Positions 30,991-61,412 of a DNA stretch of 64,000 bases are shown here, piece by piece. The notes below the pieces were generated by a model. That model had not been told where the DNA came from. It did no database searches and saw only the letters and a program-made list of their open reading frames with translations. The translations under genes were made by a program, and so were the position numbers. Every line of letters starts with the position of its first letter. The stretch's first letter is position 1. This DNA is from Alloprevotella sp. (GTDB lineage: Bacteria > Bacteroidota > Bacteroidia > Bacteroidales > Bacteroidaceae): assembly GCA_045121635.1 (NCBI GenBank), contig JBGVGJ010000058.1, forward strand, positions 48,294 to 112,293, read 5' to 3'.

Positions 30991-30995
30991 TATTT

Positions 30996-32509: not shown

Positions 32510-32557
32510 ACACTACGACCTTAAAAACTCATAACCTTAAAACCTCATAACCTTACC
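32510..32557. repeat. family-1 repeat, copy E
   Basis: ccttaaaaactcataaccttaaaacctcataaccttacccc, ending at the 32562 ATG. Confidence 0.55.
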
Positions 32558-33518: not shown

Positions 33519-33587
33519 AAGTCGGTGGTAAAATCGCTTCAATCAAGACCTCCAAACTCTCAACCCTTAAACCTCACATCCCCACAT

Positions 33588-43561: not shown

Positions 43562-43637
43562 GATTTAAGCAATCAAGAATATCTAGAGTGTCTAGAATAT
43601 CTATAGCATCTATTGAAATCAAAAAAATCCCCCAAGC

Positions 43638-43682
43638 AAAAAAGAGAATGCACTCCCAACGGAAATGCATTCTCTTTTTTAT
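43638..43682. terminator. bidirectional terminator between convergent dapA and pheS
   Basis: aaaaagagaatgcactcccaacggaaatgcattctctttttt is a hairpin flanked by A-run and T-run. Confidence 0.6.
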
Positions 43683-43699
43683 ATGTGTAACTTTCGCTA

Positions 43700-44719
43700 T
43701 TAGTTTGCCGACATAAAGTTTTCGAGGAAGCGGGTGTCGTTTTCGGAGAAGAGGCGGAGGTCCTTCACTTGGTACTTCAAGTTTGTGATGCGCTCTACAC
43801 CCATACCGAAGGCGTAACCCTTATACTTCTTGCTATCAATGCCGTTTGCTTCAAGCACATTGGGGTCTACCATGCCGCATCCGAGGATTTCTACCCAACC
43901 CGTGTGCTTACAGAATCCACAACCCGTACCGCCACAGATGTTACATGAGATGTCCATTTCCGCCGAGGGTTCAGTGAAGGGGAAGTATGAGGGGCGGAGG
44001 CGAATCTTAGTGTCGGCGCCAAACATTTCGCGAGCAAAAGTGAGGAGCACCTGCTTGAGGTCGGTGAACGAAACGTCTTCGTCGATGTAAAGACCTTCTA
44101 CCTGATGGAAGAAGCAGTGTGCGCGCGCAGAGATGGCTTCATTACGGTACACACGTCCGGGGCAAATTACGCGGATGGGAGGCTGTGACTGCTCCATTAC
44201 GCGGCTCTGCACAGAGCTGGTGTGCGTGCGGAGGATGATGTCGGGGCGCGCTTCGATGAAGAAGGTGTCCTGCATGTCGCGTGCGGGGTGATCATCGGCA
44301 AAGTTCATCGAACCAAACACGTGCCAGTCGTCTTCCACTTCAGGACCCTCCGCCATAGCGAAACCGAGGCGTGCGAAGATGTCAATGATTTCGCGCTTCG
44401 TGAGCGAAAGGGGGTGGCGTGTGCCGAGTTTCACGGGATATGCCGTGCGCGTAAGGTCGAGGTCTGAAAGGTCGTCCTCAGAAGTAGCGATATTGAGGCG
44501 AAGCTCTGCCAACTTCTCTTGAAGCGCCGTCTTAAGTTCGTTGATGCGCATACCCACTTCGCGCTTCTGTTCGCCAGGAACGTTGCGGAAGTCTGCCATG
44601 AGGTCGTTCAAAAGACCCTTCTTCGAAAGATATTTAATACGGAGCGCTTCGAGTTCCTTCTCATCAGCTGCGCTCAAAGTTTGGATTTCACCGAGTAAAT
44701 TTGAAATGCGTTCTAACAT
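43700..44719 (-). CDS. pheS: phenylalanine--tRNA ligase alpha subunit
   Basis: Class II motifs (FPFTEPSAEMDI..., GWVEILGCGMVDPNV). 339 aa. Confidence 0.9.
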   Translation of the reverse strand: MLERISNLLGEIQTLSAADEKELEALRIKYLSKKGLLNDLMADFRNVPGEQKREVGMRINELKTALQEKLAELRLNIATSEDDLSDLDLTRTAYPVKLGTRHPLSLTKREIIDIFARLGFAMAEGPEVEDDWHVFGSMNFADDHPARDMQDTFFIEARPDIILRTHTSSVQSRVMEQSQPPIRVICPGRVYRNEAISARAHCFFHQVEGLYIDEDVSFTDLKQVLLTFAREMFGADTKIRLRPSYFPFTEPSAEMDISCNICGGTGCGFCKHTGWVEILGCGMVDPNVLEANGIDSKKYKGYAFGMGVERITNLKYQVKDLRLFSENDTRFLENFMSAN

Positions 44720-44737
44720 AGTTAATTGAGGTAATAG

Positions 44738-44870
44738 GTCGTGAGGTTTTAAGGTTTTAAGGTCGCTTTGCTATGAGGGTTTGAGGCTATTCTCCGCAAG
44801 GTCCTTACGACCTGACAACCTCATAACCTGATAACCTTAACCATACGAACCTCAAACCCTTGTTGAGATT
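44738..44870. repeat. family-1 repeat, copy G (divergent region between pheS and the 44965 gene)
   Basis: gtgaggttttaaggttttaaggtcgctttgctatgagggtttgaggctattctccgcaaggtcc...caacctcataacctgataacc. It is homologous, in inverted orientation, to copy H. Confidence 0.6.
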
Positions 44871-44964
44871 TTCGTGCAAAGTTAGGTATTTTATTTGAGA
44901 AAGGTCGGTAAGTTTCGGAGAAAAAGGTGTAAATTTGCTTCTTGTAACTACTCAAAATTAACGG

Positions 44965-45786
44965 ATGAAAAGAAGTTTGTGGTTGGGGTTGCTCTTAATG
45001 ACCATTTTTACGGCGTGTCGAAAGGCGCCCGTAGAGGAAAAGCGCCCCTCTATCAACATAGATTCTGTGCTTGCCCTACCGCCCGACACGTTGGAGTGGG
45101 AAGAACTTGAGATTCCCTCGGGTGCCGATGGGTTGTTTGACGACTTCATGTTCAACTTCGTGCGCAATAGCCGCTTCCAGGAGGAGCGCATTACCTTCCC
45201 CCTACCCGTACAGAATGGCAGGGAGATGAGCACCATTGAGCGCGAGGAGTGGACCTTCGACCGCTTGGAAGTGCTTGAAGAGGTCAACACGATGATTTTC
45301 GACGAGGAGGCAGACATGACTTGTGCCCAAGACACGAGCGTAAACGAGGTGAAGGTGGAGTTCATCTTCTTCCATTGTGATAGTGTGAAGCAGTATGTCT
45401 TCAAGCGCTTGGAAGGTCGCTGGAAACTCACGGGACTTAATTGGCAATCGTTTAAGCGCCATGCCAACGGTGAGTTCTACACCTTCTACAAGCAATTTGC
45501 CACCGACTCCGTCTTCCAGCGCAAGCGCATTCGCAATCCTTATGTGTTTAAGACCTACGACGAATACAGCAACGAGGAAGTCTTTGGCGACGTTTCGGCG
45601 GATACGTGGTGGGATTACTCCCCCGAATTGCCCAAGGAGATGCTCACAAACATCAACTACGGACAGTGCCGACGCGACTCCCACGAGCGCTACTTGGTCA
45701 TCACAAGCCCCTCAACAGGCATCTCATCAACCCTCAAATTTCGCTTGATTAAGTGGCAATGGAAGTTGGTGCAATTGGAAAACTGA
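44965..45786 (+). CDS. hypothetical lipoprotein
   Basis: Lipobox LLMTIFTACRK. 273 aa with no recognisable catalytic motif. Confidence 0.55.
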   Translation: MKRSLWLGLLLMTIFTACRKAPVEEKRPSINIDSVLALPPDTLEWEELEIPSGADGLFDDFMFNFVRNSRFQEERITFPLPVQNGREMSTIEREEWTFDRLEVLEEVNTMIFDEEADMTCAQDTSVNEVKVEFIFFHCDSVKQYVFKRLEGRWKLTGLNWQSFKRHANGEFYTFYKQFATDSVFQRKRIRNPYVFKTYDEYSNEEVFGDVSADTWWDYSPELPKEMLTNINYGQCRRDSHERYLVITSPSTGISSTLKFRLIKWQWKLVQLEN

Positions 45787-45790
45787 TTTG

Positions 45791-45886
45791 TAAAGGAGAA
45801 AGGAAAAAGGAGAAAGGAGAAAGACCATGTTGAACTTAAGTGCGCCAGCTACTTTCTCATTTCTCATTTCTCATTTCTCATTTCCC
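45791..45886. repeat. family-3 palindromic element, copy 2
   Basis: aaggagaaaggaaaaaggagaaaggagaaagaccatg...gtgcgccagctactttctcatttctcatttctcatttctcatttcc. It sits between the lipoprotein stop and the probable murB start. Confidence 0.6.
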
Positions 45887-45890
45887 TCCT

Positions 45891-46898
45891 ATGTTTATCA
45901 AAGAAAATTACTCACTCCTCCCCCATAACACCTTTGGCATTGACGCCAAGTGTAAGCGCTTCGTGGAATACTCCAGCGAGGCGGAATTGCAAGAATTTCT
46001 CCGCTCACGCGATGCTGAAGAACCCCTTCTGCACATCGGTGAGGGGAGTAATCTCGTTTTTACAAAGGACTTCGACGGCACCATTCTTCACTCCGCCATC
46101 AAGGGCAAGCAGGCATTTGCAGGTCCCGACATGGTGATGCTCATTGTGGGCGCGGGTGAAAACTGGGACGATCTCGTGGCGTGGTGCGTAGAACAGGGGT
46201 ATCACGGCCTTGAAAACCTCTCGCTCATCCCTGGTGAAGTGGGTGCGGCGGCGGTGCAAAACATCGGCGCGTACGGCGTAGAAATTGCTGATTTCGTGGC
46301 GAATGTAGAGACCATCAACCTCGAAACGGGCGTTCACGAATTCTTTAGCGACAGCGCTTGCAAATACGGTTATCGCGAGAGCGTGTTCAAGAAGGAAGGC
46401 AAGGGTGCGTACGCCATTACCCGCGTGCATTTGCGCCTCAACCGCACATTCACACCGAAGTGTGCCTACGGCACCATTGAGCAAGAACTCGCCAAGCGCG
46501 GTATCACGACTCCTACCGCATCACAACTCCGCCAAGTCATCATCGACATCCGCAACGCGAAACTCCCCGACCCCAAAGAAGTGGGAAGTGCGGGTTCCTT
46601 CTTCATGAATCCCGTAGTGAGCGAGGCGGAATTTGAGCGCCTCAAAGCCTCCAACCCCGACATACCCAACTACCCCCAAGCAGAGGGCATAAAAATCCCC
46701 GCAGGGTGGCTCATTGAGCAGTGCGGATGGAAGGGCAAATCGCTCGGTAGAGCAGGCGTGTATGAAAAACAAGCCCTCGTGCTCGTCAATCGCGGTGGTG
46801 CAACGGGCGTTGAAGTAGCGACGCTTGCAAACACCATCGTAGCAGATGTGCGCCAAAAGTTTGGCATCACAATTACGCCGGAGGCAAATATTATTTAG
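45891..46898 (+). CDS. murB: UDP-N-acetylenolpyruvoylglucosamine reductase
   Basis: FAD-binding GEGSNLVF.. plus the C-terminal MurB domain (GSAGSFFMNP, GWLIEQCG). The start was chosen at MFIKENYSLL because the upstream in-frame Met is encoded by the family-3 repeat. Confidence 0.85.
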   Translation: MFIKENYSLLPHNTFGIDAKCKRFVEYSSEAELQEFLRSRDAEEPLLHIGEGSNLVFTKDFDGTILHSAIKGKQAFAGPDMVMLIVGAGENWDDLVAWCVEQGYHGLENLSLIPGEVGAAAVQNIGAYGVEIADFVANVETINLETGVHEFFSDSACKYGYRESVFKKEGKGAYAITRVHLRLNRTFTPKCAYGTIEQELAKRGITTPTASQLRQVIIDIRNAKLPDPKEVGSAGSFFMNPVVSEAEFERLKASNPDIPNYPQAEGIKIPAGWLIEQCGWKGKSLGRAGVYEKQALVLVNRGGATGVEVATLANTIVADVRQKFGITITPEANII

Positions 46899-47044
46899 TG
46901 AGGTTATTAGGTTTTAAGGTTTTAAGGACCTTGCGGAGAATACTCATAAACTTACAACCTCAAAGCAAAGCGACCTCACAACCTCAAACCTCATAACCTT
47001 ACAACCTCAAAGCGAAGCGACCTCACAACCTCATAACCTCATTT
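46899..47044. repeat. family-1 repeat, copy H (longest copy)
   Basis: gtgaggttattaggttttaaggttttaaggaccttgcggagaatactcataaacttacaacctcaaagcaaagcgacctcacaacctcaaacctcataaccttacaacctcaaagcgaagcgacctcacaacctcataacctcatttccc, ending at the 47048 ATG. Confidence 0.65.
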
Positions 47045-47047
47045 CCC

Positions 47048-47881
47048 ATGCGCCTTACCATCCTCGGCACCGGCACCAGTACGGGTGTGCCTCAAGTAGG
47101 TTGCACATGCCCTGTGTGCACCTCTTCTGACCCTCGCGATAAGCGCTTGCGCTGTTCTGCCCTCTTGGAAGGCGACAATGGCGAGTGCATCCTGATTGAT
47201 TGTAGTGCGGACTTCCGCCAACAAGTATTGAACTTTCAAGCCCTTCACCCTGCGACGCTCCGCGAAGTGGGAAGTGGCGACCCTGATAATCCTCACCACT
47301 TGCGCCTCTTCCCCATTGACGCCTTGCTCATCACGCATGAGCATGCCGACCACACGGCGGGAATTGACGATTTGCGCCCCTTCCAAGTGTTTGGAGACGT
47401 GTGTATTTACGCCGAAGAGATGGTGGCAAACAACTTACGCCAACGCCTCCCCTATTGTTTCCGAACGAACAAATATCCAGGAGTGCCCAGCATCGAACTT
47501 CGCCACATTCGCCCGCATGAGGAACTAACGATTGGAGGCATAAGTATTCTCCCCCTCCGCGTGATGCACGGCAATTTGCCCATCCTTGGTTTTATCTTCA
47601 ACAACCGCCTGGCGTACATCACCGACATGAAGTCTATCCCCGAAGAGGATGAAACACTTCTCCAGGGTATTGACACCCTCATCGTTAACGGACTTCGCGT
47701 ACAACCGCATAACACTCACCAATCTATCTCCGAGGCGGTTGCCTTCGCCCAACGCGTTGGAGCGCGCCAAACGTGGCTCACGCATTTCTCACATTCAGCA
47801 GGTCTTCACGCCGAAAGTGCGCAACTCTTGCCCGAGAATGTGGCATTTGCCTACGACAATCTTGATATTTTCATTCACTAA
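47048..47881 (+). CDS. MBL-fold metallo-hydrolase (PhnP/ElaC-like)
   Basis: HEHADH metal-binding motif and LGTGTSTGVP N-terminus. Confidence 0.7.
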   Translation: MRLTILGTGTSTGVPQVGCTCPVCTSSDPRDKRLRCSALLEGDNGECILIDCSADFRQQVLNFQALHPATLREVGSGDPDNPHHLRLFPIDALLITHEHADHTAGIDDLRPFQVFGDVCIYAEEMVANNLRQRLPYCFRTNKYPGVPSIELRHIRPHEELTIGGISILPLRVMHGNLPILGFIFNNRLAYITDMKSIPEEDETLLQGIDTLIVNGLRVQPHNTHQSISEAVAFAQRVGARQTWLTHFSHSAGLHAESAQLLPENVAFAYDNLDIFIH

Positions 47882-47914
47882 CTCCTATAGATTATTCACA
47901 TACTCCATATAGAT

Positions 47915-49333
47915 ATGGCTCGTAAAAAGAAAGAACTCCCCCTTCTCGAGAATATTCTCATCACCGACGTTGCCGCCGAAGGAAAGGCTATTGCTAAGGT
48001 GGACAACCTTGTAATTTTTGTGCCCTACGTAGTACCTGGCGACATCGTTGACCTCCAAATCAAGCGTAAGAAGCATAGTTATGCCGAGGCAGAGGCGGTG
48101 AAATTCCACAAACTCTCTGACCAGCGCGTGGCTCCCGTATGTCAGCACTTCGGTGTGTGCGGCGGTTGCAAGTGGCAATGCTTGGCGTATGAGCATCAGT
48201 TGGCTTACAAGCAAAAGCAAGTGGTGGACAACCTCACACGTATCGGAAAAATTGAACTCCCCGAGATTTCGCCCATCCTTGGGAGCAAGGACACTTACGG
48301 TTACCGCAACAAGTTGGAGTTTGGTTTCTCTAACAAGAAATGGTTGACCCTCGAGCAGGTGAAATCTGGCGTTAAGTTCGACAACATGAACGCCGTTGGT
48401 TTCCACATCACTGGGGCGTTTGACAAGATTCTCGACATCGAGAAGTGCCATCTCATGGACGACATCAACAATCGCCTTCGCAATGGCATTCGTGACTATG
48501 CCTTCGAACACGGTCTCACCTTCTTCGACCTTCGCAACCAAGGCGGACTCCTCCGTAACATGATGTTGCGCAACTCTGCCACGGGCGAACTCATGCTCGT
48601 CATGCAATTCCACTACACCACCCGCGAGGAAGAAGCACAAGCCATGCAACTCCTTGAGCACATCAAGCAAAACTTCCCCGAAGTGACTTCCTTGCTATAC
48701 GTCAACAATTTGAAGTGTAACGACACGATTGGCGACCTCGACATTAAGACCTATCACGGCACGGATTTCATCTACGAAGTGATGGAGGACTTGAAGTTTA
48801 AAGTAGGTCCCAAGAGTTTCTACCAAACCAACACCGAGCAAGCCTACGAACTCTATAAAGTGGCACGCGACTTTGCCGGATTAACGGGCGAAGAACTCGT
48901 TTACGACCTTTATACGGGTACGGGCACCATTGCTAACTTCGTAGCGAAGAAGGCCAAGAAAGTCATTGGTATTGAGTACGTTCCCGAAGCTATAGAAGAC
49001 GCTAAGGTTAACGCTCAAATCAATAATTTGGACAACACTCTTTTCTTCGCGGGCGACATGAAGGACATCCTCAACCGCGAGTTTATTGAAACTTACGGCC
49101 GTCCTGAAGTCATCATCACCGACCCTCCCCGCGCAGGCATGCACCAAGATGTAATTGACACCATCCTTTTTGCACACCCCAAGCGCATTGTCTATGTAAG
49201 TTGTAACCCCGCCACTCAAGCGCGCGACCTCCAACTCCTCGACACCCATTACCGCGTCGTTAAGGTGCAACCCGTGGATATGTTCCCCCAGACGCACCAC
49301 GTTGAAAACGTAGTGCTATTAGAAGTGAGATAA
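47915..49333 (+). CDS. rlmD: 23S rRNA (uracil-C5)-methyltransferase RlmD/RumA
   Basis: TRAM domain, a 4Fe-4S cluster Cys (CQHFGVCGGCKWQ) and the MTase DLYTGTGTI and DPPRAG motifs. Confidence 0.85.
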   Translation: MARKKKELPLLENILITDVAAEGKAIAKVDNLVIFVPYVVPGDIVDLQIKRKKHSYAEAEAVKFHKLSDQRVAPVCQHFGVCGGCKWQCLAYEHQLAYKQKQVVDNLTRIGKIELPEISPILGSKDTYGYRNKLEFGFSNKKWLTLEQVKSGVKFDNMNAVGFHITGAFDKILDIEKCHLMDDINNRLRNGIRDYAFEHGLTFFDLRNQGGLLRNMMLRNSATGELMLVMQFHYTTREEEAQAMQLLEHIKQNFPEVTSLLYVNNLKCNDTIGDLDIKTYHGTDFIYEVMEDLKFKVGPKSFYQTNTEQAYELYKVARDFAGLTGEELVYDLYTGTGTIANFVAKKAKKVIGIEYVPEAIEDAKVNAQINNLDNTLFFAGDMKDILNREFIETYGRPEVIITDPPRAGMHQDVIDTILFAHPKRIVYVSCNPATQARDLQLLDTHYRVVKVQPVDMFPQTHHVENVVLLEVR

Positions 49334-49418
49334 CCCCACAAGTTACAACAAGGCGTTAATCTAAATGTCCCGTAAGTTGCGACGGCGTCGCAACTTACTC
49401 ACCCTAATTCTCCCCCCC

Positions 49419-50108
49419 ATGCTCCGCCGCCACAATCCCATCCTCCGCCAGCGCCTCCTGCAACCTTTGCAAGCGGGCGACATCAAGGGTTTGCAAGACA
49501 TTCTTGCAAACCTCAAGAGCATGGACTTCAAGACGGCAGGATTCTTGCTTGCCGAGGACTTACTTCCCTCCCTCAACGAGACTTTGTTTTGGGAATGCTT
49601 CACAACCATCGTGCCCACAAACCCAAAAGCCTACTTGGGTACCTTCCTTAAAGGCGCGATAGCCTTGCACCGTCAAGGATCACTCACACTCACCCACGAG
49701 GCACTGAGCACGTATGCCCAATCGGGCATCTCTACCATTGATTGCCGCAAGGTACTTGAAGCATTACTTCCCCTCGCTCGTAAGCATGAGGAAATAACCT
49801 TCCTGTTGCAACACTTCACGGCTGACGTGCAACAACGCATTGCGCTCTTATTACGCATCACCACCCTCCCTGCCGCCTACGCTCTGTTCCAAGAAATGAA
49901 GACCGAAGAAGAAGACGCCTCCCTACTCCGCTCGACCTGCCTCGCACTCATGAAACGCGGAGACGCTCTGGCTTTCCGCTTGGCAAGCATCTGTACGTCC
50001 TACTTTGGATTGGAAGAACTCCCAGGCACCTTCTCACTCACGCTTCAACCTTACGAACTTTCGCGACTTGACCAAAGTTATGAGACCTTCAAGGCGTGCT
50101 TTGATTAA
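49419..50108 (+). CDS. hypothetical all-alpha protein
   Basis: Clean ORF. The upstream in-frame ATG at 49365 lies inside a perfect 13-bp palindrome, so the start was moved to MLRRHNPILRQ. Confidence 0.5.
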   Translation: MLRRHNPILRQRLLQPLQAGDIKGLQDILANLKSMDFKTAGFLLAEDLLPSLNETLFWECFTTIVPTNPKAYLGTFLKGAIALHRQGSLTLTHEALSTYAQSGISTIDCRKVLEALLPLARKHEEITFLLQHFTADVQQRIALLLRITTLPAAYALFQEMKTEEEDASLLRSTCLALMKRGDALAFRLASICTSYFGLEELPGTFSLTLQPYELSRLDQSYETFKACFD

Positions 50109-50194
50109 AACTTAATCCATTACAATTAAAATTAGGTCCCTTATAATTTTAATTAGGTCCCTTATAATTCTGACTAATTCCCATACGATCAGCA

Positions 50195-52540
50195 ATGAAA
50201 TACCTCTTCTCACTCCTCTTACTTGCTTCGTTGCTAACAATAGCCCCCATCCACGCTATTGCCCAAGAGCAAACCACCACACAAAAGGGGTTGTTCACCG
50301 TTACCCAGAAGGGCGAAAATTATTTCTTTGAAATTCCCGATTCGCTCGTTGGTCGCCTGTTCCTCGCAACGGTGCGCTACACAAACACTCCCGCCAACAC
50401 CTCAAAATATGGCGGTGAGCAAGCCAATCAGCAGTCTGTTTATTGGGAAAAGGCACCAGGCAACAAACTCTTGCTCCGTGCAAATATGTTTTTTGCCGAC
50501 ACCGATTCTACCGACAACATCAGTCGCTCGGTGTATGTCTCTTCTTCCGACCCCATCATCGGTGCCTTTAAGATTGAAGGCACTTCTGAGCGTGGCTATA
50601 AAATTAAGGTGAATTCCTTCTTTGAGGACGATGATCCCGCTCTCGGACTCAACCGTAGCGCAAAGACTACCCTGGGCGTTTCAAGCCTTCAGCGCGATCT
50701 TTCCTACATTGAGAGCATCAAGAGTTACCCCACAAACGTGGAGGTGCGCCTCGTAAAAACTTACTATGCCTCAAGCGGAAGCATCAGTGCGCAACGTACG
50801 GGAAATGCTACGATTGGTTTGAACATCTCCTTTGTGCTTCTTCCCAAAGAACCCATGCACCAACGCCTTTTCGACCCTCGCGTGGGATACTTCGCCAATC
50901 GTTGCGTGCCCTTCACGGATGACCAGCAAACGGTTAGCACACAAACGTTCATTACACGCTATCGCCTCGAACCCAAGGACTCACTTGCGGCCGACTCTAT
51001 GCGTCGCGGATTCCTTGTTGAACCCAAGAAACCCATCGTTTACTACATCGACCCCGCAACTCCCAAGCAATGGATACCCTACCTCATTCAGGGCGTAAAC
51101 GATTGGCAAGTGGCCTTCGAAAAAGCAGGTTTCAAGAATGCCATTATCGGTAAGGAATGGCCCAATGACCCCAGCATGTCGCTCGAAGACGCACGCTTTA
51201 GCGTCATCCGCTACCTTGCTTCTAACATTGAGAATGCCTACGGACCTAATGTTCATGATCCACGCTCAGGAGAGATTATCGAGAGTCACGTATGCTGGTA
51301 CCACAACGTGATGACCTTACTCCACGACTGGTATATGATTCAAGCGGGCACACTTGACGAAGCCGCGCGCAAGATGAAGTTTGACACCGAACTCATGGGT
51401 GAACTCATCCGCTTCGTGTCCAGTCATGAAGTTGGCCACTCCATGGGTTTGCGCCACAATTTCGGAGCCTCAAGTCTCTCGCCCGTAGATAGTCTGCGCA
51501 ATAAGGAATGGGTGGAAAAGCATGGGCACACCGCTTCCATCATGGACTATGCGCGCTTCAACTACGTTGCTCAACCCGAAGATAGCATCTCACGCAAGGG
51601 ACTCTTCCCCAGAATCAACGATTACGATATCTGGGCCATCCAATGGGGTTACACTCCCATGTTCGACGCTTACGATGCCGAAAGCGACCATTGGGAACTC
51701 GAGAAACTCGTTCAGGCAAACCTTCCCCACAATCCCCGACTCTGGTTTGGTGATGGCGAAACAAACAAGACCAATGACCCACGTTGTCAAACGGAAGACC
51801 TTGGCGACGACGCGATGAAGGCAAGCCATTACGGCATTCTCAACCTCAAGCTTGTCATTAAGAATCTCCCTGAGTGGACCTACGAAAGCAATGACATTTA
51901 TCACACAAACTTAAAGCGTGGTCTTGGAAATGTCTTCAACCAATACAGACGTTATATGGGGCATGTGGCACGTAATATCGGCGGTGTGCAATACAATTAC
52001 CGCACCGTGGATGAACCTGGTCAGGTTTACACTCCCACATCACGCGAAAAGCAACTCCGCGCCCTCGATTTCATTGATGAGCACGTCTTTACCTGTCCCT
52101 CATGGCTCATTGACGAACCCTTCGTAGCACGGCTCTATCCCCGTCCTGCCGACCTCACAGATAAGTATTGCGAAGATGTTTTGCACAACTACATTTTCGA
52201 CATTAGTGGTTGGATTGTGGGAGATGCCTTCAACGAAGAACTTCCTTTTGAAGACTATCTTGAAGAAGTTGACAAGCGCCTCTTCCGTGGCTTGGACATG
52301 GGCACAACCCTTGACGCTCATCGCCGACTTATGCAAACTACGGCGGTTGTTCAGCTCAACGATGCCTACCGTCGCTTCTCGGAATACGCAACTGATAGTC
52401 CACAACGCCCCTACTTCATGGATTATTACGAACGCCTTCACCGCCGACTCCTCAATGCGCGCGCATCGGACAAGGACACACGCCTCCACTACGCCAACCT
52501 TGCCGACCTTATCACTAAGGCGAAAGACGCGTTGAAGTAA
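50195..52540 (+). CDS. secreted zinc-dependent metalloprotease (DUF4953/DUF5117-type)
   Basis: Signal peptide, then HEVGHSMGLRHNF as the zincin motif. 781 aa. Confidence 0.75.
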   Translation: MKYLFSLLLLASLLTIAPIHAIAQEQTTTQKGLFTVTQKGENYFFEIPDSLVGRLFLATVRYTNTPANTSKYGGEQANQQSVYWEKAPGNKLLLRANMFFADTDSTDNISRSVYVSSSDPIIGAFKIEGTSERGYKIKVNSFFEDDDPALGLNRSAKTTLGVSSLQRDLSYIESIKSYPTNVEVRLVKTYYASSGSISAQRTGNATIGLNISFVLLPKEPMHQRLFDPRVGYFANRCVPFTDDQQTVSTQTFITRYRLEPKDSLAADSMRRGFLVEPKKPIVYYIDPATPKQWIPYLIQGVNDWQVAFEKAGFKNAIIGKEWPNDPSMSLEDARFSVIRYLASNIENAYGPNVHDPRSGEIIESHVCWYHNVMTLLHDWYMIQAGTLDEAARKMKFDTELMGELIRFVSSHEVGHSMGLRHNFGASSLSPVDSLRNKEWVEKHGHTASIMDYARFNYVAQPEDSISRKGLFPRINDYDIWAIQWGYTPMFDAYDAESDHWELEKLVQANLPHNPRLWFGDGETNKTNDPRCQTEDLGDDAMKASHYGILNLKLVIKNLPEWTYESNDIYHTNLKRGLGNVFNQYRRYMGHVARNIGGVQYNYRTVDEPGQVYTPTSREKQLRALDFIDEHVFTCPSWLIDEPFVARLYPRPADLTDKYCEDVLHNYIFDISGWIVGDAFNEELPFEDYLEEVDKRLFRGLDMGTTLDAHRRLMQTTAVVQLNDAYRRFSEYATDSPQRPYFMDYYERLHRRLLNARASDKDTRLHYANLADLITKAKDALK

Positions 52541-52556
52541 ATACTCATATAACTCA

Positions 52557-52608
52557 CGATTGGGTGTGTCAAAAAGCAAATTGACACACCCAATTTCTTT
52601 TTTTTGCA
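52557..52608 (+). terminator. strong rho-independent terminator after the metalloprotease gene
   Basis: cgattgggtgtgtcaaaaagcaaattgacacacccaat followed by ttctttttttt. Confidence 0.7.
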
Positions 52609-52782
52609 AGAAGAGCTTCGTGTAAATTACAAGGCTTTTTCACAGAATAATTTCTCATCTTCTACCAATTTGTCAAACACATATTTCAAAGCAAACGGAT
52701 AGGACGAAAAACTTTCAGAGAAATACTATTTTTCCGCGTAAATCTTTTTGTATCAACAATAAAGGGCGTAACTTTGCATCGC

Positions 52783-53004
52783 TTAACACAGCTAAACTAG
52801 ACCTGACTAAGCTTAAATTTAGGACGGTTCCAGTTTATTTAAAGAGGGGAACCCGGACATTTAAAGAATGATTAAGTAAAGATTATTAGATTAGTGAATG
52901 AATCCGCCCTGCTTTGCTTCACATAGGCAATTGTAGTGCACCGAAATGAGTAAAAACTTGTTTCAAAGTCCGAGAGGCGAAAGCCCCTCTTTTTTTGTTT
53001 TTAG
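52783..53004 (+). ncRNA. candidate small RNA (promoter-to-terminator unit without ORF; possibly 6S-like)
   Basis: A Bacteroidetes-type promoter sits upstream, with TTTG at 52747..52750 and TAACTTTG at 52769..52776. About 215 nt follow with no ORF. A GC-rich GAAA-tetraloop hairpin gaggcGAAAgcccctc plus ttttttt lies at 52972..53004. A second hairpin with a T-run lies at 53020..53046. Confidence 0.4.
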
Positions 53005-53479
53005 GGCTATTGCGTCCGAACAGAAACGCATTTTTTTACGACGCCCACCTCCCCTGCATTTTTCCTCATTTTTCACTCAAAACTTTAACACATATTAACA
53101 TTCGCATAGCTTAAAATCGCATCAAAATCTATTCTTGGAAGCACAATTTGTACGCTCGGCGCAAAAATAAGTTACCTTGAAAAAACGATAATACTCATTT
53201 TTGCCCCAAAATAAGTAACCTTGTGAACGAAAAAAAGTGAAGATAACCCCGATTCCAGGGACTATCTCCACTTCCGTAGTACAAAGATACATCATTTCAG
53301 AGCGAAAAGCAAATGCGTTAACACTTGTTAACGCTATAATTATTTTACTTTTTTCTTCATTTTTGATATTTAATCTTCCAATACAGACAAAAAGAAAACC
53401 CACAGGAACACCTGTGGGCTCTAAAACGTGTCTATGCTCGGCTATCGCTCAGCTAACACGTCTTTCGCTTGGCTGTAAA

Positions 53480-53659
53480 TTAAGCAGCAACTGTGTCAGC
53501 AGCAACTGTGTCAGCAGCAACTGAATCAACAACTGTAGTATCAACTACTGTAGTGTCGATTGAATCAGCAGCAACTTCAGCAGCGGGAGTAGCGTTACCA
53601 CCGCAAGAAGCGAAAGAAACTGCAGCGAAAGCAGCGAACATGAAAACCAACTTCTTCAT
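53480..53659 (-). CDS. small repetitive lipoprotein (59 aa), below the ORF-track cutoff
   Basis: The minus strand encodes MKKLVFMFAAFAAVSFASCGGNATPAAEVAADSIDTTVVDTTVVDSVAADTVAADTVAA, with a signal peptide, a lipobox FASC and DTVAA-type repeats. A minus-strand terminator (cccacaggtgttcctgtggg followed by ttttcttttt) lies at 53389..53421. Confidence 0.55.
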   Translation of the reverse strand: MKKLVFMFAAFAAVSFASCGGNATPAAEVAADSIDTTVVDTTVVDSVAADTVAADTVAA

Positions 53660-53934
53660 TTTCTTTGTTAATTTTTAAAAGTGATACAATTAATTGTCCT
53701 ATTAAAACGGTGCAAAATTACAGACTTTTTCCATTCCGAAAAAAATATCCATTAAAAAAATATACTTTTTTGCAGAAAATTTAACAATTTAACATTCTAA
53801 GTACCTGTTTTGTTATGCTGATTTTACAAATAAATAAAACATCTTCAAGACATTACGAAAAATAGAACAAAAATTTCGTGGGATAAAATACGGGGTGTGT
53901 CTGGCTTTTGTTGTAAATTTGTAGCAAATAAGGA

Positions 53935-54036
53935 TATAAGGTTATAGGTTGTAGGTCGCTACACTTTAAGGGATAAGACTATGCGGCTTGATTCCACACC
54001 TTATAACCTCATAACCTCATAACCTCATAACCTTAC
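53935..54036. repeat. family-1 repeat, copy I
   Basis: aaggatataaggttataggttgtaggtcgctacactttaag...ccacaccttataacctcataacctcataacctcataacc, upstream of mtaB. Confidence 0.6.
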
Positions 54037-54057
54037 ATATACTATATAATATATTTT

Positions 54058-55395
54058 GTGAATTCTCCTTTATTAAATAAGAAAGCAGCCTTTCACACAT
54101 TAGGTTGCAAACTCAATTTCGCGGAAACCTCCTCACTTCAAGACGCCCTGCGCCTGCGTGGCATGCAGATGGCAGAGAAGGGCGAGGTAGCGGACTTGTG
54201 CATCATTAATACCTGTAGTGTGACCGACACTGCCGACTCCAAGTGCCGCCAAACGATTCACCGCTTTACGCGCAAACACCCCGGTGCGTTCGTTGTGGTG
54301 ATGGGGTGTTACGCCCAGTTGCAACCCGATACGATTGCGGCATTTGAGGGTGTGGACCTAGTGGTGGGCATGGAGCATAAGGGCGAGGTGATCCGCCTGA
54401 TCGAAGAGCGTTGGGCAAAGAAGGGAACGCTGGCGCAGGGCGAGGCGTGCCACGAAGCGATTGCCGTACCTACGCGCGAGATTTCGACCTTCGTGCCCTC
54501 ATGTTCGCACGGCGACCGCACGCGCTACTTCCTCAAGGTTCAGGATGGTTGCAACTATTACTGCACCTACTGCACCATCCCCATGGCACGTGGGAAGAGC
54601 AGAAACGGAACGATTGAAAGCCTCGTTAGTCAAGCACAAGAAGTGGCGACTGAGGGAGGCAAGGAAATTGTTATCACGGGTGTGAACATCGGTGACTTTG
54701 GCCGCTCCACGGGCGAGACGTTCTTTGACCTCGTAAAGGCTTTGGATGCCGTGGAAGGCATTGAGCGCTACCGCATTTCGTCGATCGAACCCAACTTGCT
54801 CACTACGGAGATTATTGACTTCTGCGCGCAGTCGAAGAAGTTTATGCCCCATTTCCACATTCCCCTTCAAAGTGGTAGCGATGCGGTACTTAAGTTGATG
54901 CGCCGCCGCTATGACACCGCCCTTTTTGCTGAAAGAATCAACTACATCAAGCAGGTAATGCCCGATGCCTTTATCGGGGTGGACGTCATCGTGGGGATGC
55001 GTGGCGAGACGGACGAACTGTTTGAGGAGGCGTACAATTTTATTAAGGGGCTTGAGATTTCGCAACTCCATGTGTTCTCTTATTCCGAACGCCCCGGCAC
55101 ACGCGCACTTGAAATTCCCTACAAAGTGGATGCACAAACCAAGCACGAGCGCAGCCAACGCCTTATCGAACTCTCAGAAGAGAAGCGCAAGGCACACTAT
55201 GCCGCTCACATCGGCACAACCCGCCCCGTGCTTTGGGAGCATGCCAAGAACGGCGCGCCATTGAGCGGATTTACAGATAATTATATTAAAGTGACGCAAG
55301 CAGAAGGCTGCGAAGCGACAGACAATACGCTCTCTGTAGTGCGCCTCGGCGAATTTACTGAAGACCAAGAAACTTTATGGGCAACACAAGCATGA
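54058..55395 (+). CDS. mtaB: radical-SAM methylthiotransferase (MiaB/RimO/MtaB family, MtaB-like)
   Basis: N-terminal MTTase Cys triad (GCKLN...NTCSVT), the radical SAM CxxxCxxC (CNYYCTYCTIP) and a TRAM-like C-terminus. Apparent GTG start. Confidence 0.75.
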   Translation: MNSPLLNKKAAFHTLGCKLNFAETSSLQDALRLRGMQMAEKGEVADLCIINTCSVTDTADSKCRQTIHRFTRKHPGAFVVVMGCYAQLQPDTIAAFEGVDLVVGMEHKGEVIRLIEERWAKKGTLAQGEACHEAIAVPTREISTFVPSCSHGDRTRYFLKVQDGCNYYCTYCTIPMARGKSRNGTIESLVSQAQEVATEGGKEIVITGVNIGDFGRSTGETFFDLVKALDAVEGIERYRISSIEPNLLTTEIIDFCAQSKKFMPHFHIPLQSGSDAVLKLMRRRYDTALFAERINYIKQVMPDAFIGVDVIVGMRGETDELFEEAYNFIKGLEISQLHVFSYSERPGTRALEIPYKVDAQTKHERSQRLIELSEEKRKAHYAAHIGTTRPVLWEHAKNGAPLSGFTDNYIKVTQAEGCEATDNTLSVVRLGEFTEDQETLWATQA

Positions 55396-56414
55396 AGACA
55401 GAAAAGAAGATTGCCGTAGTCATCCTCAACTGGAACGGCAAGGAGATGATGCGCCAGTTTCTGCCCTCGGTGGTGCGCTTCAGCGAAGAATTGGCGGATG
55501 TTATCGTGGCAGATAATGCTTCTACCGACGGTTCGTTAGAGATGCTGGCAGCGGAGTTTCCCACAGTTGGAACTATCGTACTTGACCAGAATTATGGCTT
55601 TGCAGAAGGCTATAATCGTGCCCTTGCGCAGGTCAGTCACCCCTACTTACTCCTGCTCAACTCGGATGTAGAAGTGAGCGAAGGGTGGTTGCGCCCCCTA
55701 CTCTCCTACATGGAAGAAAATAAGGAAGTTGCAGCGTGCCAACCCAAGCTTTTGAGTCAGCGCGAGAAGGATATGTTTGAATATGCGGGTGCTTCAGGCG
55801 GTTACCTTGATAGATATGGGTATCCCTTCTGCCGCGGCAGAATTTTTCATGTCGTAGAAAAGGATTGTGGTCAGTATAACGATATCAAAGATGTGCTTTG
55901 GGCAACGGGTGCCGCACTAATGGTGCGCCGTGAGGACTGGGTAAGTTCGGGCGGATTGGACGGTCGCTTCTTTGCCCACATGGAAGAGATAGACTTGTGC
56001 TGGCGTCTGAGAAATAGAGGCCGACGCATTGTGTGCGTACCGCAAAGTGTGGCGTACCATGTTGGGGGTGCTACTCTCGACCAGGGAAATCCGCGCAAGA
56101 CCTTCCTCAACTTCCGCAACAACCTCCTGATGCTTTACAAGAACCTACCCGAAGCAGAACTCCATTCGGTAATGCGCACGCGCGCCCTTCTGGATTATGT
56201 GGCAGCCTTCAAGTTCTTGGCAACCTTTGACTTCCCCAACTTCCGTGCCGTCCTTAAGGCGCGTAAGGAATACCAACGCATGCGCCCCGACTTCACGCCC
56301 CAGCGCGTGGAAAACTTGCAGAAGACCGTGAATGATTCACTCCCCGAGCGCATGAACTTCAGCATCCTCTGGCAGTTTTATGCGAGGGGGAAGAAGTTGT
56401 TTGCGGAATTGTAG
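55392..56414 (+). CDS. family 2 glycosyltransferase
   Basis: GT-A fold N-terminus (IAVVILNWNG..., DNASTDGS, DxD-like LNSDVEV). Its start overlaps the mtaB stop by ATGA. Confidence 0.7.
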   Translation: MKTEKKIAVVILNWNGKEMMRQFLPSVVRFSEELADVIVADNASTDGSLEMLAAEFPTVGTIVLDQNYGFAEGYNRALAQVSHPYLLLLNSDVEVSEGWLRPLLSYMEENKEVAACQPKLLSQREKDMFEYAGASGGYLDRYGYPFCRGRIFHVVEKDCGQYNDIKDVLWATGAALMVRREDWVSSGGLDGRFFAHMEEIDLCWRLRNRGRRIVCVPQSVAYHVGGATLDQGNPRKTFLNFRNNLLMLYKNLPEAELHSVMRTRALLDYVAAFKFLATFDFPNFRAVLKARKEYQRMRPDFTPQRVENLQKTVNDSLPERMNFSILWQFYARGKKLFAEL

Positions 56415-56483
56415 GGGGACTGGCAATAGGCCGTTACAGGCAGCGACAGGCCTTAACAAGCCATAACAATCGCCGCCCCACTC

Positions 56484-56514
56484 CGCAAGGCATTACTCAC
56501 TACTCACTCCTAAC
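56484..56514. repeat. family-2 repeat, copy 2
   Basis: ttactcactactcactcctaactactcactac, about 15 nt upstream of the 56529 ATG. Confidence 0.6.
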
Positions 56515-56528
56515 TACTCACTACCACA

Positions 56529-57242
56529 ATGCCCTTATACCTCATCCCCGTAACCCTTGGTGACACACCGCATGAGCGCGTGTTGCCCGCATATAATAAA
56601 GAAGTGATACTCGGTTTGCGCCACTTCATCGTAGAAGAGTTGCGCACCGCCCGACGCTTCTTGAAGCAAGTAGAGAAGTCGATTGATATTGACAGTCTTC
56701 AGTTTTACACCATGGGCAAGCACGCTGATGCGGCGCTCTTCTCCAAGTATTTAGAACCGCTCCGCCGTGGTGAGTCGATAGGTGTGATTTCCGAAGCTGG
56801 ATGTCCCGCCGTGGCTGACCCGGGTGCAGATATTGTTGCCATTGCACAGCGTGAGGGGCATCAGGTAGTGCCCCTCGTAGGACCTTCGTCCATTCTCTTA
56901 GCAGTGATGGCGAGTGGGTTTAACGGACAAAGTTTTGCCTTTCACGGGTATCTGCCCATCGATGCTTCCGACCGCAGCAAGCGCCTGAAGCAGTTGGAAC
57001 AGCGCTCCATGCATGAGAACCAAACACAGCTCTTTATTGAGACTCCCTACCGCAATGCCAAACTCTTTGCCGACATCCTTTCTGCCTGTGCGCCCCAAAC
57101 GCGACTCTGCGTAGCGGCAGGCATTACGACGGAGCAGGAATACATCCGTTCAATGACGCTTAAGGAATGGAAGCAAAAGGGACTGCCCGACCTTGGAAAG
57201 ATTCCTGCTATCTTCGCCATCTATGCGGGAGGACGGAAATAA
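56529..57242 (+). CDS. tetrapyrrole-methylase-fold SAM-dependent methyltransferase (RsmI-like)
   Basis: MPLYLIPVTLGD..., VISEAGCPAVADPG and GPSSILLA are typical of the RsmI/YraL family. Confidence 0.7.
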   Translation: MPLYLIPVTLGDTPHERVLPAYNKEVILGLRHFIVEELRTARRFLKQVEKSIDIDSLQFYTMGKHADAALFSKYLEPLRRGESIGVISEAGCPAVADPGADIVAIAQREGHQVVPLVGPSSILLAVMASGFNGQSFAFHGYLPIDASDRSKRLKQLEQRSMHENQTQLFIETPYRNAKLFADILSACAPQTRLCVAAGITTEQEYIRSMTLKEWKQKGLPDLGKIPAIFAIYAGGRK

Positions 57243-57364
57243 TAATCGAGAAAGTTTTTTTACAACGTGATGTTATATACTGCAAACTTATTTATATATT
57301 TGCAGTAACAAGGTTGCAAACAATTTGACATTAAGATTATAGACCTTAAGACTATAAATATCTA

Positions 57365-57958
57365 ATGATTATGGAACACTATTGGAATTTGTACACAGAA
57401 CTTCCTACGCTGATGCAAATCTTTTGGGGATGTGCCCTGATTAGCACAACGATTATGGTAGTTCAGTTTATCCTTTCACTTTGCGGAATTGGCGATGTTG
57501 AAATGGATGTTGATTTTGACTCGGCAGACGGATTAGACGCAGCAACAGCAGGAGACCTTTTCTCAATTAAAAACCTCATTATATTCTTTGTAGGTTTCGG
57601 TTGGGCAGGTATCAGTTTCCGCGATGTAATCCCCCAAGACACACTCTTAATTCTTGCTGCTGTAGTATGCGGATGCTTCTTCGTAATTTCGTTTATTTTA
57701 ATTTTCAAGCAGTTGATGAAGTTCGAAGGCAATGGCGCCGTACGCATGGAAGCAGCAGTGGGCAAAAAGGGCGAAGTATATCTCCGCATTCCCGCCAAGC
57801 GCAATGGCAAGGGTAAGGTAACGGTGAGCCTCAACGGTGTAGCCCGCGAATACAATGCCGTTACTAATGATGACGAGATGATTCCCTCAGGAAAAATCGT
57901 GGATATCATTGGCAGCACAGGTGAAGGCACCTTACTTGTTACAGCACGCCTCTCCTAA
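57365..57958 (+). CDS. NfeD-like membrane protein (C-terminal OB-fold)
   Basis: N-terminal TM helices plus a C-terminal beta domain (GKKGEVYLRIPAKRNGKGKVTVSLNGVAREYNAV). It immediately precedes the flotillin gene. Confidence 0.65.
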   Translation: MIMEHYWNLYTELPTLMQIFWGCALISTTIMVVQFILSLCGIGDVEMDVDFDSADGLDAATAGDLFSIKNLIIFFVGFGWAGISFRDVIPQDTLLILAAVVCGCFFVISFILIFKQLMKFEGNGAVRMEAAVGKKGEVYLRIPAKRNGKGKVTVSLNGVAREYNAVTNDDEMIPSGKIVDIIGSTGEGTLLVTARLS

Positions 57959-58000
57959 ACAACTCTCAAGAATTACAATAACTTAAATACTTTATAAGAT

Positions 58001-59371: not shown

Positions 59372-59395
59372 TTCTCCCCCCTCTTAAAAGGAATA

Positions 59396-59430
59396 AAACA
59401 CCGCTCGCACTGCGACGCGGTGTTTTTTAT
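59396..59430 (+). terminator. terminator after the flotillin gene
   Basis: aaaacaccgctcgcactgcgacgcggtg followed by ttttttat. Confidence 0.65.
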
Positions 59431-59498
59431 ATATGTGTATCTCTTAAATTTTCAAAAATATATAGTAACTTTGCACGACAAATTAAATTCTCATAACT

Positions 59499-59939
59499 AT
59501 GAACACCAGCGAACACACGCTTCAGCAAATCGGACGCGCCCTCAAAAAGGTGGCGCAGAAATTCAAGATTGAACTTGAAAATCAACCCTTGACCGATATT
59601 CATATACAGGTTAACCCAGAAAGCGGTGAGTTGCTCGTGTTCAATGACGAGGACATCGAGATTACGCGTTGTGTGGTGGAAGAGTGGATTAACTACCACA
59701 ATGAAAACTTCTACGACATCGTTAAGCAGCAGTTGCTCAAGGCAATTCAGGAGCACAAGGAGGAACTTGAAAACCTCTGCATCTTGAAACCCTACTCTTT
59801 CGTGCTTGTCGATGAAGACCACGAAACGATTTGCGACCTCTACCTCGTTGACGATGACACCATCGTGCTTGATGGCGAACTCATGGCGGGATTGAGCGAC
59901 GACCTTGATAGTTTCTGGGAGGAACTTTCAAGCAGATAA
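59499..59939 (+). CDS. hypothetical acidic protein
   Basis: 146-aa clean ORF with no recognisable motif. Confidence 0.5.
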   Translation: MNTSEHTLQQIGRALKKVAQKFKIELENQPLTDIHIQVNPESGELLVFNDEDIEITRCVVEEWINYHNENFYDIVKQQLLKAIQEHKEELENLCILKPYSFVLVDEDHETICDLYLVDDDTIVLDGELMAGLSDDLDSFWEELSSR

Positions 59940-59988
59940 CCGCCTCAACACAATATTCTAAACGAAACTAAAAATTTTACAACATACT

Positions 59989-61353: not shown

Positions 61354-61365
61354 ATCATAGATAAG

Positions 61366-61412
61366 GTATTGGGTTAAAGGTCGCTTCGCTTTCAGGTTAT
61401 AAGACGCGTGGC
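61366..61412. repeat. family-1 repeat, copy J (inverted orientation)
   Basis: ggttaaaggtcgcttcgctttcaggttataag is the reverse complement of the cttataacctgaaagcgaagcgacctttaacc arm. Confidence 0.55.

Follow-up and report, generated by a model that had tools for sequence, protein, structure and literature searches.

Repetitive extragenic palindromic (REP) sequences are short, imperfect, core-bearing palindromes in many dispersed copies, which are strictly extragenic, lie inside transcription units, either between cistrons or behind the last gene, and are mosaic in build, and many of them stand within ~15 nt of a stop codon. The Correia elements of Neisseria (NEMIS/CREE), ~100-150 bp in length, are gene-adjacent, co-transcribed and form long hairpins; they differ in presence or absence between strains, are bounded by terminal repeats of a defined 26 bp and duplicate a TA target. 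The pneumococcal BOX element is modular (boxA, a variable boxB and boxC), intergenic and non-coding, with a stable predicted structure; it is not known to have short-period arms, and a stop/start polarity is not reported for it. The heptamer repeats GGGAATC of Xanthomonas and GGGGAYT of Nostoc are intergenic, mostly between co-oriented genes and close to open reading frames (ORFs), and are sometimes paired in inverted orientation and variable in length between relatives (PMC4692102). In Prevotella intermedia and Prevotella nigrescens, the PINSR repeat of 188 bp occurs in ~180 copies per genome and was reported without terminal inverted repeats and as restricted to the P. intermedia group (PMC4755523), and in Porphyromonas gingivalis a MITE (miniature inverted-repeat transposable element) combined with internal tandem repeats (a minisatellite) is described (PMC4596501). 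In the present study, we analysed a stretch of 64,000 nucleotides from Alloprevotella sp. (contig JBGVGJ010000058.1), referred to below as the window, for a family of inverted repeats with 8-nt periodic arms, of which one copy (copy H, Table 1) forms the spacer between murB and a gene for an MBL hydrolase.

With moderate confidence, we regard this family as a Prevotellaceae-wide, non-autonomous palindromic spacer repeat, similar to REP sequences and bacterial interspersed mosaic elements (BIME) or to MITEs, which is co-transcribed with its neighbours and is not a promoter element. In behaviour it is closest to REP/BIME, in its arms to the heptamers of Xanthomonas and Nostoc (PMC4692102), and in size and turnover to Correia-type MITEs. 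As with the REP/BIME sequences of Escherichia coli and other enterobacteria, its copies are dispersed core palindromes, extragenic and inside predicted transcription units; judged by description, it is set apart from them by in-phase 8-nt tandem arms with stops at most junctions, by a strict purine-5'/G-free-3' polarity, and by its frequent location in 5' untranslated regions (UTRs) and next to start codons. It shares with the Correia elements an inverted-repeat design, a long predicted hairpin and presence or absence between relatives, but its ends are variable numbers of 8-mers and not a fixed terminus, and there is no duplication at a single clean site. Head-to-tail intergenic units of 7-8 nt are common to the heptamers, to the cyanobacterial short tandemly repeated repetitive (STRR) sequences and to this family; the heptamers form G-rich, quadruplex-prone single arrays, whereas the Alloprevotella arrays are inverted pairs around a core hairpin, carry modules, and stand at both gene boundaries with a fixed polarity. 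The period of 8 agrees with an STRR-like tandem repeat, and the core hairpin, the modules and the inverted pairing go beyond that class. BOX is likewise modular, intergenic, structured and non-coding, but its modules are of ~45-60 nt and unrelated in sequence. PINSR and the P. gingivalis MITE resemble the family as lineage-specific, intergenic, non-coding repeats and are set apart from it by their descriptions only, neither of which mentions 8-nt periodic inverted arms; identity with PINSR was set aside because that repeat is reported without inverted repeats (PMC4755523).

The full element reads 5'-(AGGTTDTR)n, then the core RACCWTGCGG, a variable loop, the opposite core half CCGCAWGGTY and (YAHAACCT)n-3'. 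An earlier reading of the window made from the letters only (the sequence-only reading) had described the copies as imperfect inverted repeats, and arms and core were indeed found in inverted arrangement at the window sites; core and inverted arms together recur at nine window sites and at least 119 loci. The core stands at the inner arm ends in five of the AGGTT/AACCT copies in the window (C, D, G, H and I); H and G have one core half only, and A, E and J are half elements. In the window, AACCTCATAACC gave 40 matches at ≤2 mismatches against 4.5 ± 2.2 expected, a number reached by 0 of 100 shuffles, and AAAGCGAAGCGACC gave 7 matches against 0.64 expected at the same threshold. Tandem Repeats Finder reported period 8 at every full copy. 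We also applied an nhmmer profile made from 54 elements, all from genomes other than that of the window and with zero window sequence included. It recovered nine of the ten sites listed in the sequence-only reading, both strands each, with E values from 3e-4 to 6e-19, and none of its matches in the window lay inside a predicted gene. The claim that all copies are intergenic is thereby borne out, and of the roughly 10 copies in 64 kb nine are confirmed, the site at 33541-33580 (copy F) being undetected. The orthologous spacer in a related Alloprevotella locus, L119, carries a full element of ~250 nt, so copy F is probably a decayed remnant. Among the modules proposed as shared by the copies, GGACCTTGCGGAGAAT is exact in G and H only, and it is the shorter core that is common. 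G and H proved to be related elements in opposite orientation, with 51 nt at 82% complementarity that include the exact 16-mer GGACCTTGCGGAGAAT; the arms said to face outward in divergent regions follow automatically from any palindrome.

The unit consensus A-G-G-T-T-D-T-R was derived from 748 units of many species, in which the search pattern had set positions 1-4. T stands at position 5 in 92% of units and at position 7 in 96%, and 90% have a purine (A or G) at position 8. Since 86% of the units end in T-R, a TAA or TGA is formed at those unit junctions, and because the period is 8, three units put stops in all three frames, by symmetry on either side and either strand. Some arms hold the 16-nt module AAGCGAAGCGACCT, which keeps the 8-nt phase because its length, read as YAAAGCGAAGCGACCT, is 16 nt. 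This module includes the sequence GCGAAGC, which is known as an unusually stable DNA mini-hairpin. The core loops are highly variable between genomes. At one locus (L031, 6474-6854), between convergent genes, an array of ~380 nt consists purely of AACCT units and AAGCGAAGCGACCT modules with 8 pattern matches, and it shows that arms can expand far beyond hairpin size. At another (L018 1694-1925, compared with L102 2160-2130), a G+C-rich palindrome of ~230 nt is nested exactly at the element core, between GCCGTCCGGA and GCCATGCGGA; for this reason the core may be an insertion or recombination hot spot. In addition, in many rumen and gut Prevotellaceae elements a conserved small hairpin module, CTCAACT-GAAGCTTGCGAA-AGTTGAG, adjoins the outer end of the AACCT arm. 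The sequence GAAGCTTGCGAAAGTTGAG, which flanks many rumen copies, was tried as a promoter, but its agreement with the -7 consensus is poor, and a small terminal hairpin module is the better reading.

The position of the elements relative to genes was examined with our own ORF and codon-usage model, by which 196 arm clusters were located in all loci. In these calls a start is the first ATG, GTG or TTG after a stop, which biases the distance to the start downward; the public gene calls agree with ours around H, and a Pfam domain boundary agrees with the called gene after copy I. Elements were found in 98 co-directional, 21 divergent and 15 convergent spacers, against a background of 384, 66 and 61 (convergent share 11% with an element and 12% in the background), and they have no preference for promoter-bearing regions. 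In the 98 co-directional spacers, the element starts at a median of 11 nt past the upstream stop and ends at a median of 16 nt before the next start, and in 40 of them, where both distances are ≤30 nt, it takes up the whole gap. Once the element is subtracted, filled spacers are distributed in length as empty ones are when each spacer counts once; ≤20 nt remains in 32% of filled spacers, and only 0.8% of the empty-spacer nucleotides are in spacers that short, which does not fit random insertion per nucleotide.

The orientation of the arms is equally regular. A purine-rich arm is followed by an AACCT arm in 93 adjacencies against 3 reversed ones, all three within tandem arrays, so that the terminal inverted repeats by which MITEs are recognized are present here as imperfect inverted arms. 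Of the arms that occur alone, 16 of 20 purine-rich ones are closer to the stop and 21 of 24 AACCT ones closer to the start. The AACCT arm adjoins starts in the window, as had been noticed, and also among the at least 119 loci. Its reported distance of 5-15 nt from the ATG holds for B, C, E and H (7-9 nt), but the distance is 16 nt for G, 24 nt for I and 54 nt for A; in D, the arm is 66 nt from the start of the plus-strand gene and ~10 nt from the 5' end of rnpB. The other arm is equally close to the upstream stop (-1 nt in C, 2 nt in H and 8 nt in J), and tight copies are present also between convergent stop codons. The 3' arms are G-poor and C-rich (28% C vs 8% G), and the G content of the 35 nt before starts is 8% where a spacer has an element and 12% where it has none. 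No shared function was found among the neighbouring genes, which code for SmpB, Ffh, FolD, MurB, PheS and a MiaB-like protein.

The Bacteroidetes sigma-A promoter has a -7 box of TAnnTTTG with TTTG upstream. In the window, 30 of the 55 exact TAnnTTTG boxes fall in the intergenic 15%, and hence the motif acts as a real signal here. The sequence-only reading had considered the family promoter-proximal, with a role in transcription, and arms near start codons would agree with a promoter-associated element or a transcription-factor site that drives the adjacent gene. We consider this scarcely credible. None of the 30 intergenic boxes lies inside any window copy, by which a promoter inside the element was rejected, and the gene-proximal arm, being nearly without G, cannot hold such a box. 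Nearby boxes stand outside the copies and read in, copies occur inside predicted operons, upstream stops are as close as starts, and convergent spacers are used at the background rate. Moreover, elements are swapped or absent at orthologous sites where the adjoining promoter box is conserved: in locus L121 (~90-95% nucleotide identity in the flanks), the box TAACTTTG and its flank are kept and in place of G, between unchanged boundaries, stands an element whose arms are AAAGGAG. In B, C, E, H and J, the interval from the upstream gene to the element holds no exact box. H stands between a predicted operon box at 44930-44937 and a terminator-like hairpin at 52558-52595 that follows the last gene of the run. 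Because the boxes lie outside and read in, and H lies within a predicted operon, the copies are predicted to be transcribed spacer or leader sequence downstream of promoters, neither promoter-upstream elements nor terminators. Over all loci, boxes within 30 nt of elements are 12 inward and 7 outward, a weak enrichment, so the description of a 5' UTR directly behind a promoter fits a minority of copies.

Copy D was the case from which a transcriptional role had been argued, as the adjacent gene is an RNA gene. Between D and the next gene, the only candidate box is TAACTTCG, which lies outside D and is back-to-back with an exact box at 31139-31146; D is thus predicted to be in a ~125-nt 5' leader of the rnpB precursor. 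The copy therefore does count against a purely translational role, as a predicted leader and not as a promoter. The promoter-pair segment is nearly invariant in L119, and the adjoining copy D is only 65-68% identical. In this pair (31113-31146), TAACTTCG points toward rnpB on the minus strand and TACTTTTG lies on the plus strand; the latter ends 4 nt before the ATG at 31151 of a gene with a type IX secretion system plug domain (T9SS-plug-domain gene), a geometry which implies a nearly leaderless mRNA for that gene.

The elements could also be intrinsic or Rho-dependent terminators or attenuators, the C-rich, G-free arm serving as a Rho loading site. The long hairpins, the base composition of the 3' arms and the copies between convergent genes are in line with it. 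No T-run was found after the stems, the copies being followed by short A- or C-rich stretches and then the ATG, and a terminator scan of 43600-63500 flagged none of G, H, I and J while it found 52558-52595 and 59407-59423. Separate canonical hairpin-plus-T-run terminators stand at predicted operon ends (52558-52595 and 62402-62468), the second of which belongs to another repeat family. Furthermore, the 40 tight copies among 98 co-directional ones leave no space for a new promoter, so that efficient termination would silence housekeeping genes (the smpB and murB partners). The terminator reading was rejected on the lack of a T-run, the copies inside operons and the separate canonical terminators, and with Rho-dependent attenuation included we hold it to be highly unlikely. 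The other repeat family, with the 21-nt unit AAATTATCTCGGACTTAATTT, occurs at 1147-1192, 4300-4358, 32416-32492, 50104-50182 and 62402-62468; its inverted pairs with a T-run look like ordinary intrinsic terminators, some are tandemly multiplied, and the array at 50104-50182 is absent from L121. The segment 52600-53900, ~1.3 kb without a convincing ORF, has several -7 boxes distributed over both strands, three strong terminator-like hairpins (52558-52595, 53275-53233 and 53422-53395) and, at 53483-53554, perfect 15-nt tandem repeats; it may encode small RNAs.

Predicted folding was examined in 37 non-redundant tight spacers. All 37 formed one enclosing hairpin, with a median of -45 kcal/mol and z = -5.3 against mononucleotide shuffles, in which the helix starts at a median of 3 nt past the stop and ends at a median of 17 nt before the start. 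Copy H (46899-47044), whose fold the sequence-only reading had suggested as a check, folded better than shuffles on both strands (z = -3.2 for plus and -2.6 for minus); the pheS-sense RNA of G gave -48 kcal/mol (z = -4.0) and the leader RNA of D -31.4 kcal/mol (z = -2.4). Strong selection on the stem in mRNA is argued against by the antisense strand, the more stable one in 27 of the 37 spacers. Selection for a stem on the sense strand also found no support, since in mRNA sense A:C mismatches exceed G:U pairs (68 vs 39 with the module masked, p = 0.0065); the unmasked count of G:U vs A:C (64 vs 117) is confounded by the orientation of the GCGAAGC module. A longer start-proximal arm was also looked for, and there was no asymmetry (20 vs 20). 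The L121 version of the H spacer, a hybrid with non-complementary arms, folded no better than shuffles (z = +1.2), which likewise counts against strong selection on the stem.

These results bear on the possibility that the element is a selected cis-acting translation module in a phylum free of Shine-Dalgarno (SD) pairing, in which the purine-rich arm closes every frame behind the upstream stop, the hairpin brings stop and start close, and downstream translation is coupled or tuned. The terminating ribosome would melt the base of the helix, and the G-free tail thus exposed would be an unstructured place for landing. In Bacteroidetes, initiation does without SD pairing, and A-rich, unstructured leaders are favoured. 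The geometry of the helix fits, as a median of 17 nt between it and the start is left G-poor and unpaired, and so do the TAA or TGA junctions, the low G content of the 35 nt before the start, the strict polarity, the close fit to gene boundaries and the per-spacer distribution; sister families also keep the layout despite other units. Against it stand the copy in the leader of rnpB, the tight copies between convergent stops, the z value of the L121 hybrid, the 8-nt murB-MBL gap without an element in a distant relative (L125), the excess of A:C over G:U, which is opposite to selection on the sense stem, and the symmetric arm lengths. We consider this, the main rival reading, unlikely.

The elements diverge much faster than the sequence around them: orthologous copies are 57-96% identical with many whole-unit indels, and their flanks are 84-93% identical. 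In a 5' UTR of two Alloprevotella metagenome-assembled genomes (MAGs) with flanks 93% identical (L003 and L067), 17 nt in L003 correspond to a 101-nt element in L067; one breakpoint is 9 nt past the -7 box and the other 6 nt short of the ATG. In L121, a TTTCTCC arm has taken the place of the right half of H, and another spacer is 23 nt long instead of 86 nt. In L125, the gene order is the same, and the murB-MBL gap is 8 nt with DUF4348 and murB overlapping, and for this reason the compact operon is probably the ancestral state. The modules shared at unlinked loci, together with presence/absence and replacement at fixed sites, point to dispersal of copies in trans. In-place slippage of short seeds, as in microsatellites or STRR-like repeats and without any copying between loci, would account for the varying unit number, for the 47-nt internal duplication in H and for the ~380-nt array of L031, and dispersed intergenic heptamers are known in Xanthomonas and Nostoc (PMC4692102). 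We find it quite improbable, since complex modules without internal repetition are found again at unlinked loci and in other species (G and H share GGACCTTGCGGAGAAT, at least 119 loci have AAGCGAAGCGACCT, and the core is common), and slippage alone leaves the replacement of whole cassettes at fixed boundaries unexplained.

Besides the AGGTT/AACCT family, sister families with the same layout and core and other arm units have at least five elements in the window (Table 1). Four of the five sister sites carry a form of RACCWTGCGG, all five are close to a stop or start codon, and arms from different families combine within single elements. The superfamily is united by the core and by the purine-5', G-free-3' layout. 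In general, the purine arms of the AGGTT and AAAGGAG families are SD-like, in a phylum without SD pairing; a perfect Shine-Dalgarno-like GGAGGTG lies at 24160-24166 within the purine arm of copy C, 85 nt 5' of the smpB start. A G+C-rich nested palindrome of 218 nt with arm pairs of 29, 21 and 16 nt (7748-7965, and L045 3970-4190) is unrelated to AGGTT/AACCT; it was matched in the Alloprevotella MAG of L045 in both orientations and is probably a second dispersed palindrome family.

The sister families are also relevant to a tandem binding array for an oligomeric RNA- or single-strand-binding protein, which would read TRAGGTT every 8 nt, much as TRAP and HutP bind triplet repeats set at intervals. 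In such an array, binding would compete with the hairpin. Seven of the eight positions are strongly conserved in the 748 units, T7 and R8 among them, and the 8-nt spacing, which misfits the helical repeat of double-stranded DNA, would suit single strands. On the other side, a candidate protein did not emerge, the loci share no co-occurring gene, and the sister families place different units (AAAGGAG, AGAGTAC) at the same positions. The chance of such an array is accordingly very slight in our estimation.

The extent of the family was determined by an exact-pattern scan with the AAGCGAAGCGACCT module over one genome per species, which gave at least 119 stretches. As the loci were ascertained through this one module, the sampled subfamilies are biased. 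By record titles, 110 of the 119 matches listed are labelled Bacteroidales: 53 Alloprevotella, 15 Prevotella, 27 Prevotellaceae and 15 'Bacteroidaceae' or 'Bacteroidales' MAGs. The view that the repeat is a lineage-specific (Prevotellaceae), dispersed palindrome of the REP/MITE type is supported by these labels. Among the nine matches listed under other names, at least some look like mis-binned contigs, and the two archaeal ones listed have a different repeat context and are possibly due to chance. One MAG, JAZQXH01, contributes ~29 of the loci among the matches listed, and the window itself has 9 copies in 64 kb. The window and the Alloprevotella MAG locus L119 are 83-94% identical over 10 kb, which assigns the window to an Alloprevotella-like organism. 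Several syntenic loci are non-independent observations. The family is apparently unnamed. Of the Rfam covariance models, RNase P alone reached its gathering score in the window. When the limit was relaxed to E = 5 around G and H, the further matches were due to chance; the best of them over H, below threshold, was a plant miRNA model at E = 1.5. The searchable literature (the sequence motif, Prevotella REP/MITE, and hairpin/operon topics) holds no description of the element, in agreement with the earlier failure to match it to a named family.

Anatomy, distribution, placement, polarity, turnover and predicted folding of the family are shown by the present data, and dispersal in trans, co-transcription and an action through RNA are proposed. 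On the reading we favour, a co-transcribed palindromic spacer repeat, the copies would occupy DNA that is transcribed and untranslated: intercistronic gaps, 5' UTRs, one RNA-gene leader and some 3'-3' spacers. Every transcript, from either strand, would then have the stop-rich AGGTT arm after the stop and the G-free AACCT arm before the start. The elements would change by gain and loss of 8-nt units, internal duplication and exchange of half elements with the core-sharing sister families, and further by nested insertion at the core and replacement of the whole cassette. Any effect would be RNA-borne, a long imperfect stop-to-start hairpin influencing mRNA processing, stability or downstream initiation, and most copies would be tolerated passengers and not dedicated regulators. 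The fixed polarity could be a filter from the need for G-poor, unstructured initiation regions, because the regions before starts are G-poor even without elements.

Several points weigh against this reading. The tracking of boundaries per spacer and the strict polarity would be explained just as well by functional selection, and seven of eight unit positions are strongly conserved across species, beyond what a hairpin needs. The gene map comes from our own caller, whose choice of starts shortens the distance to the start, and the promoter and operon assignments are predictions from exact matches to TAnnTTTG, a consensus of Bacteroides promoters. Mobility is something we infer: there was no target-site duplication at a single clean empty/filled site in the L003/L067 pair, no long left-right arm pair 0.3-4 kb apart enclosing a transposase-like recurring ORF in the fetched loci, and neither a RAYT-type transposase nor any recurrent gene family beside the at least 119 loci (~0.9 Mb).

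Within copy H (Table 1), the 5' arm follows the stop of murB directly. The 3' arm holds a 47-nt internal tandem duplication (2.1 copies, 94% matches), and the right core half CCGCAAGGTCC is absent from the copy.

Table 1. Copies of the AGGTT/AACCT element in the window, parts of copy H, sister elements, promoter-like boxes and the small hairpin module
Feature	Position	Strand	Remarks
Copy A	8099-8143	+	Half element, AACCT arm alone; next start at 8197; small hairpin module at 8148-8170
Copy B	23550-23648	+	Ends 7 nt before DMP19-like gene start (23653)
Copy C	24149-24247	+	Whole spacer, stop at 24150 to smpB start 24251; stop TAA within first unit
Copy D	30993-31093	-	Between rnpB 5' end (30984) and conserved back-to-back promoter region; predicted rnpB 5' leader
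Copy E	32514-32557	+	Half element, AACCT arm alone; ends 8 nt before start at 32562
Copy F (the earlier 'weak' copy)	33541-33580	+	No profile match
Copy G	44736-44870 (nhmmer 44742-44853)	-	Predicted pheS 5' UTR; pheS 43700-44719, minus strand, identified from Pfam matches
Copy H	46899-47044		Whole murB-MBL-hydrolase intercistronic spacer; nhmmer 46898-46993 and 46994-47041
Genes flanking H	murB 45891-46898; MBL gene 47048-47881		
H 5' arm	46899-46925	+	Three AGGTTDTR units straight after murB stop TAG (46896-46898)
H core half-site GGACCTTGCGG	46926-46936	+	
H 3' arm	46943-47042	+	YAHAACCT units; ends ~6-9 nt before ATG at 47048
H module AAAGCAAAGCGACC	46962-46975	+	Variant of GCGAAGC mini-hairpin unit
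H module AAAGCGAAGCGACC	47009-47022	+	
Copy I	53937-54036	+	Predicted 5' UTR of MiaB-like radical-SAM gene, start 54058
Copy J	61362-61418	+	Half element, purine-rich arm with AGGTCGCTTCGCTTT; 8 nt past ffh stop (61353)
AAAGGAG/CTCCTTT sister element	12459-12549		
AAAGGAG/CTCCTTT sister element	45792-45884	+	AAAGGAG / TTTCTCA 7-mer arms, core AGACCATGTTG; fills DUF4348-murB spacer
AGAGTAC-type sister element	11037-11163	+	Both core halves: GACCTTGCGG at 11109, CCGCATGGTT at 11127
AGAGTAC-type sister element	56483-56524		
CCTAACT sister repeat	22456-22494		Arm repeats only
Exact -7 box TAACTTTG	44877-44884	-	Reads through G toward pheS
Exact -7 box TAAATTTG	53914-53921	+	Directly 5' of copy I, reads into I toward MiaB-like gene
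Candidate rnpB -7 box TAACTTCG	31117-31124	-	One mismatch to TAnnTTTG; conserved in L119
CTCAACT-GAAGCTTGCGAA-AGTTGAG module	8148-8170		Also in L009, L012, L027, L047, L051, L080, L087, L092, L096, L097, L103, L108

Prevotellaceae dominate gut, rumen and oral sites, and their non-coding DNA is poorly described. Together with its sister families, the family seems to account for a large part of the DNA that is transcribed and untranslated in Alloprevotella. These repeats will confuse gene-start calling, assembly and structured-RNA searches in these genomes, and since the cassettes differ between close relatives they could serve as a strain-typing marker. It is also conceivable, although we think it improbable, that exchangeable 'UTR cassettes' of built-in polarity, each with a stop-rich purine arm, a core hairpin and a G-free arm for landing, set translation (re)initiation and mRNA processing genome-wide without SD pairing, and an oligomeric protein reading TRAGGTT might be involved. 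If so, changes in unit number and swaps of cassettes would be a fast-evolving expression rheostat, and the family a new class of cis-regulatory repeat. There is a minority chance that a real regulatory system is present. If the elements are passive passengers, they would be a clean example of selection at gene boundaries shaping the sites where selfish repeats survive. By keeping one polarity and fitting flush from a stop to the next start, the elements offer a testable handle on translation inside operons in a phylum that lacks SD pairing.

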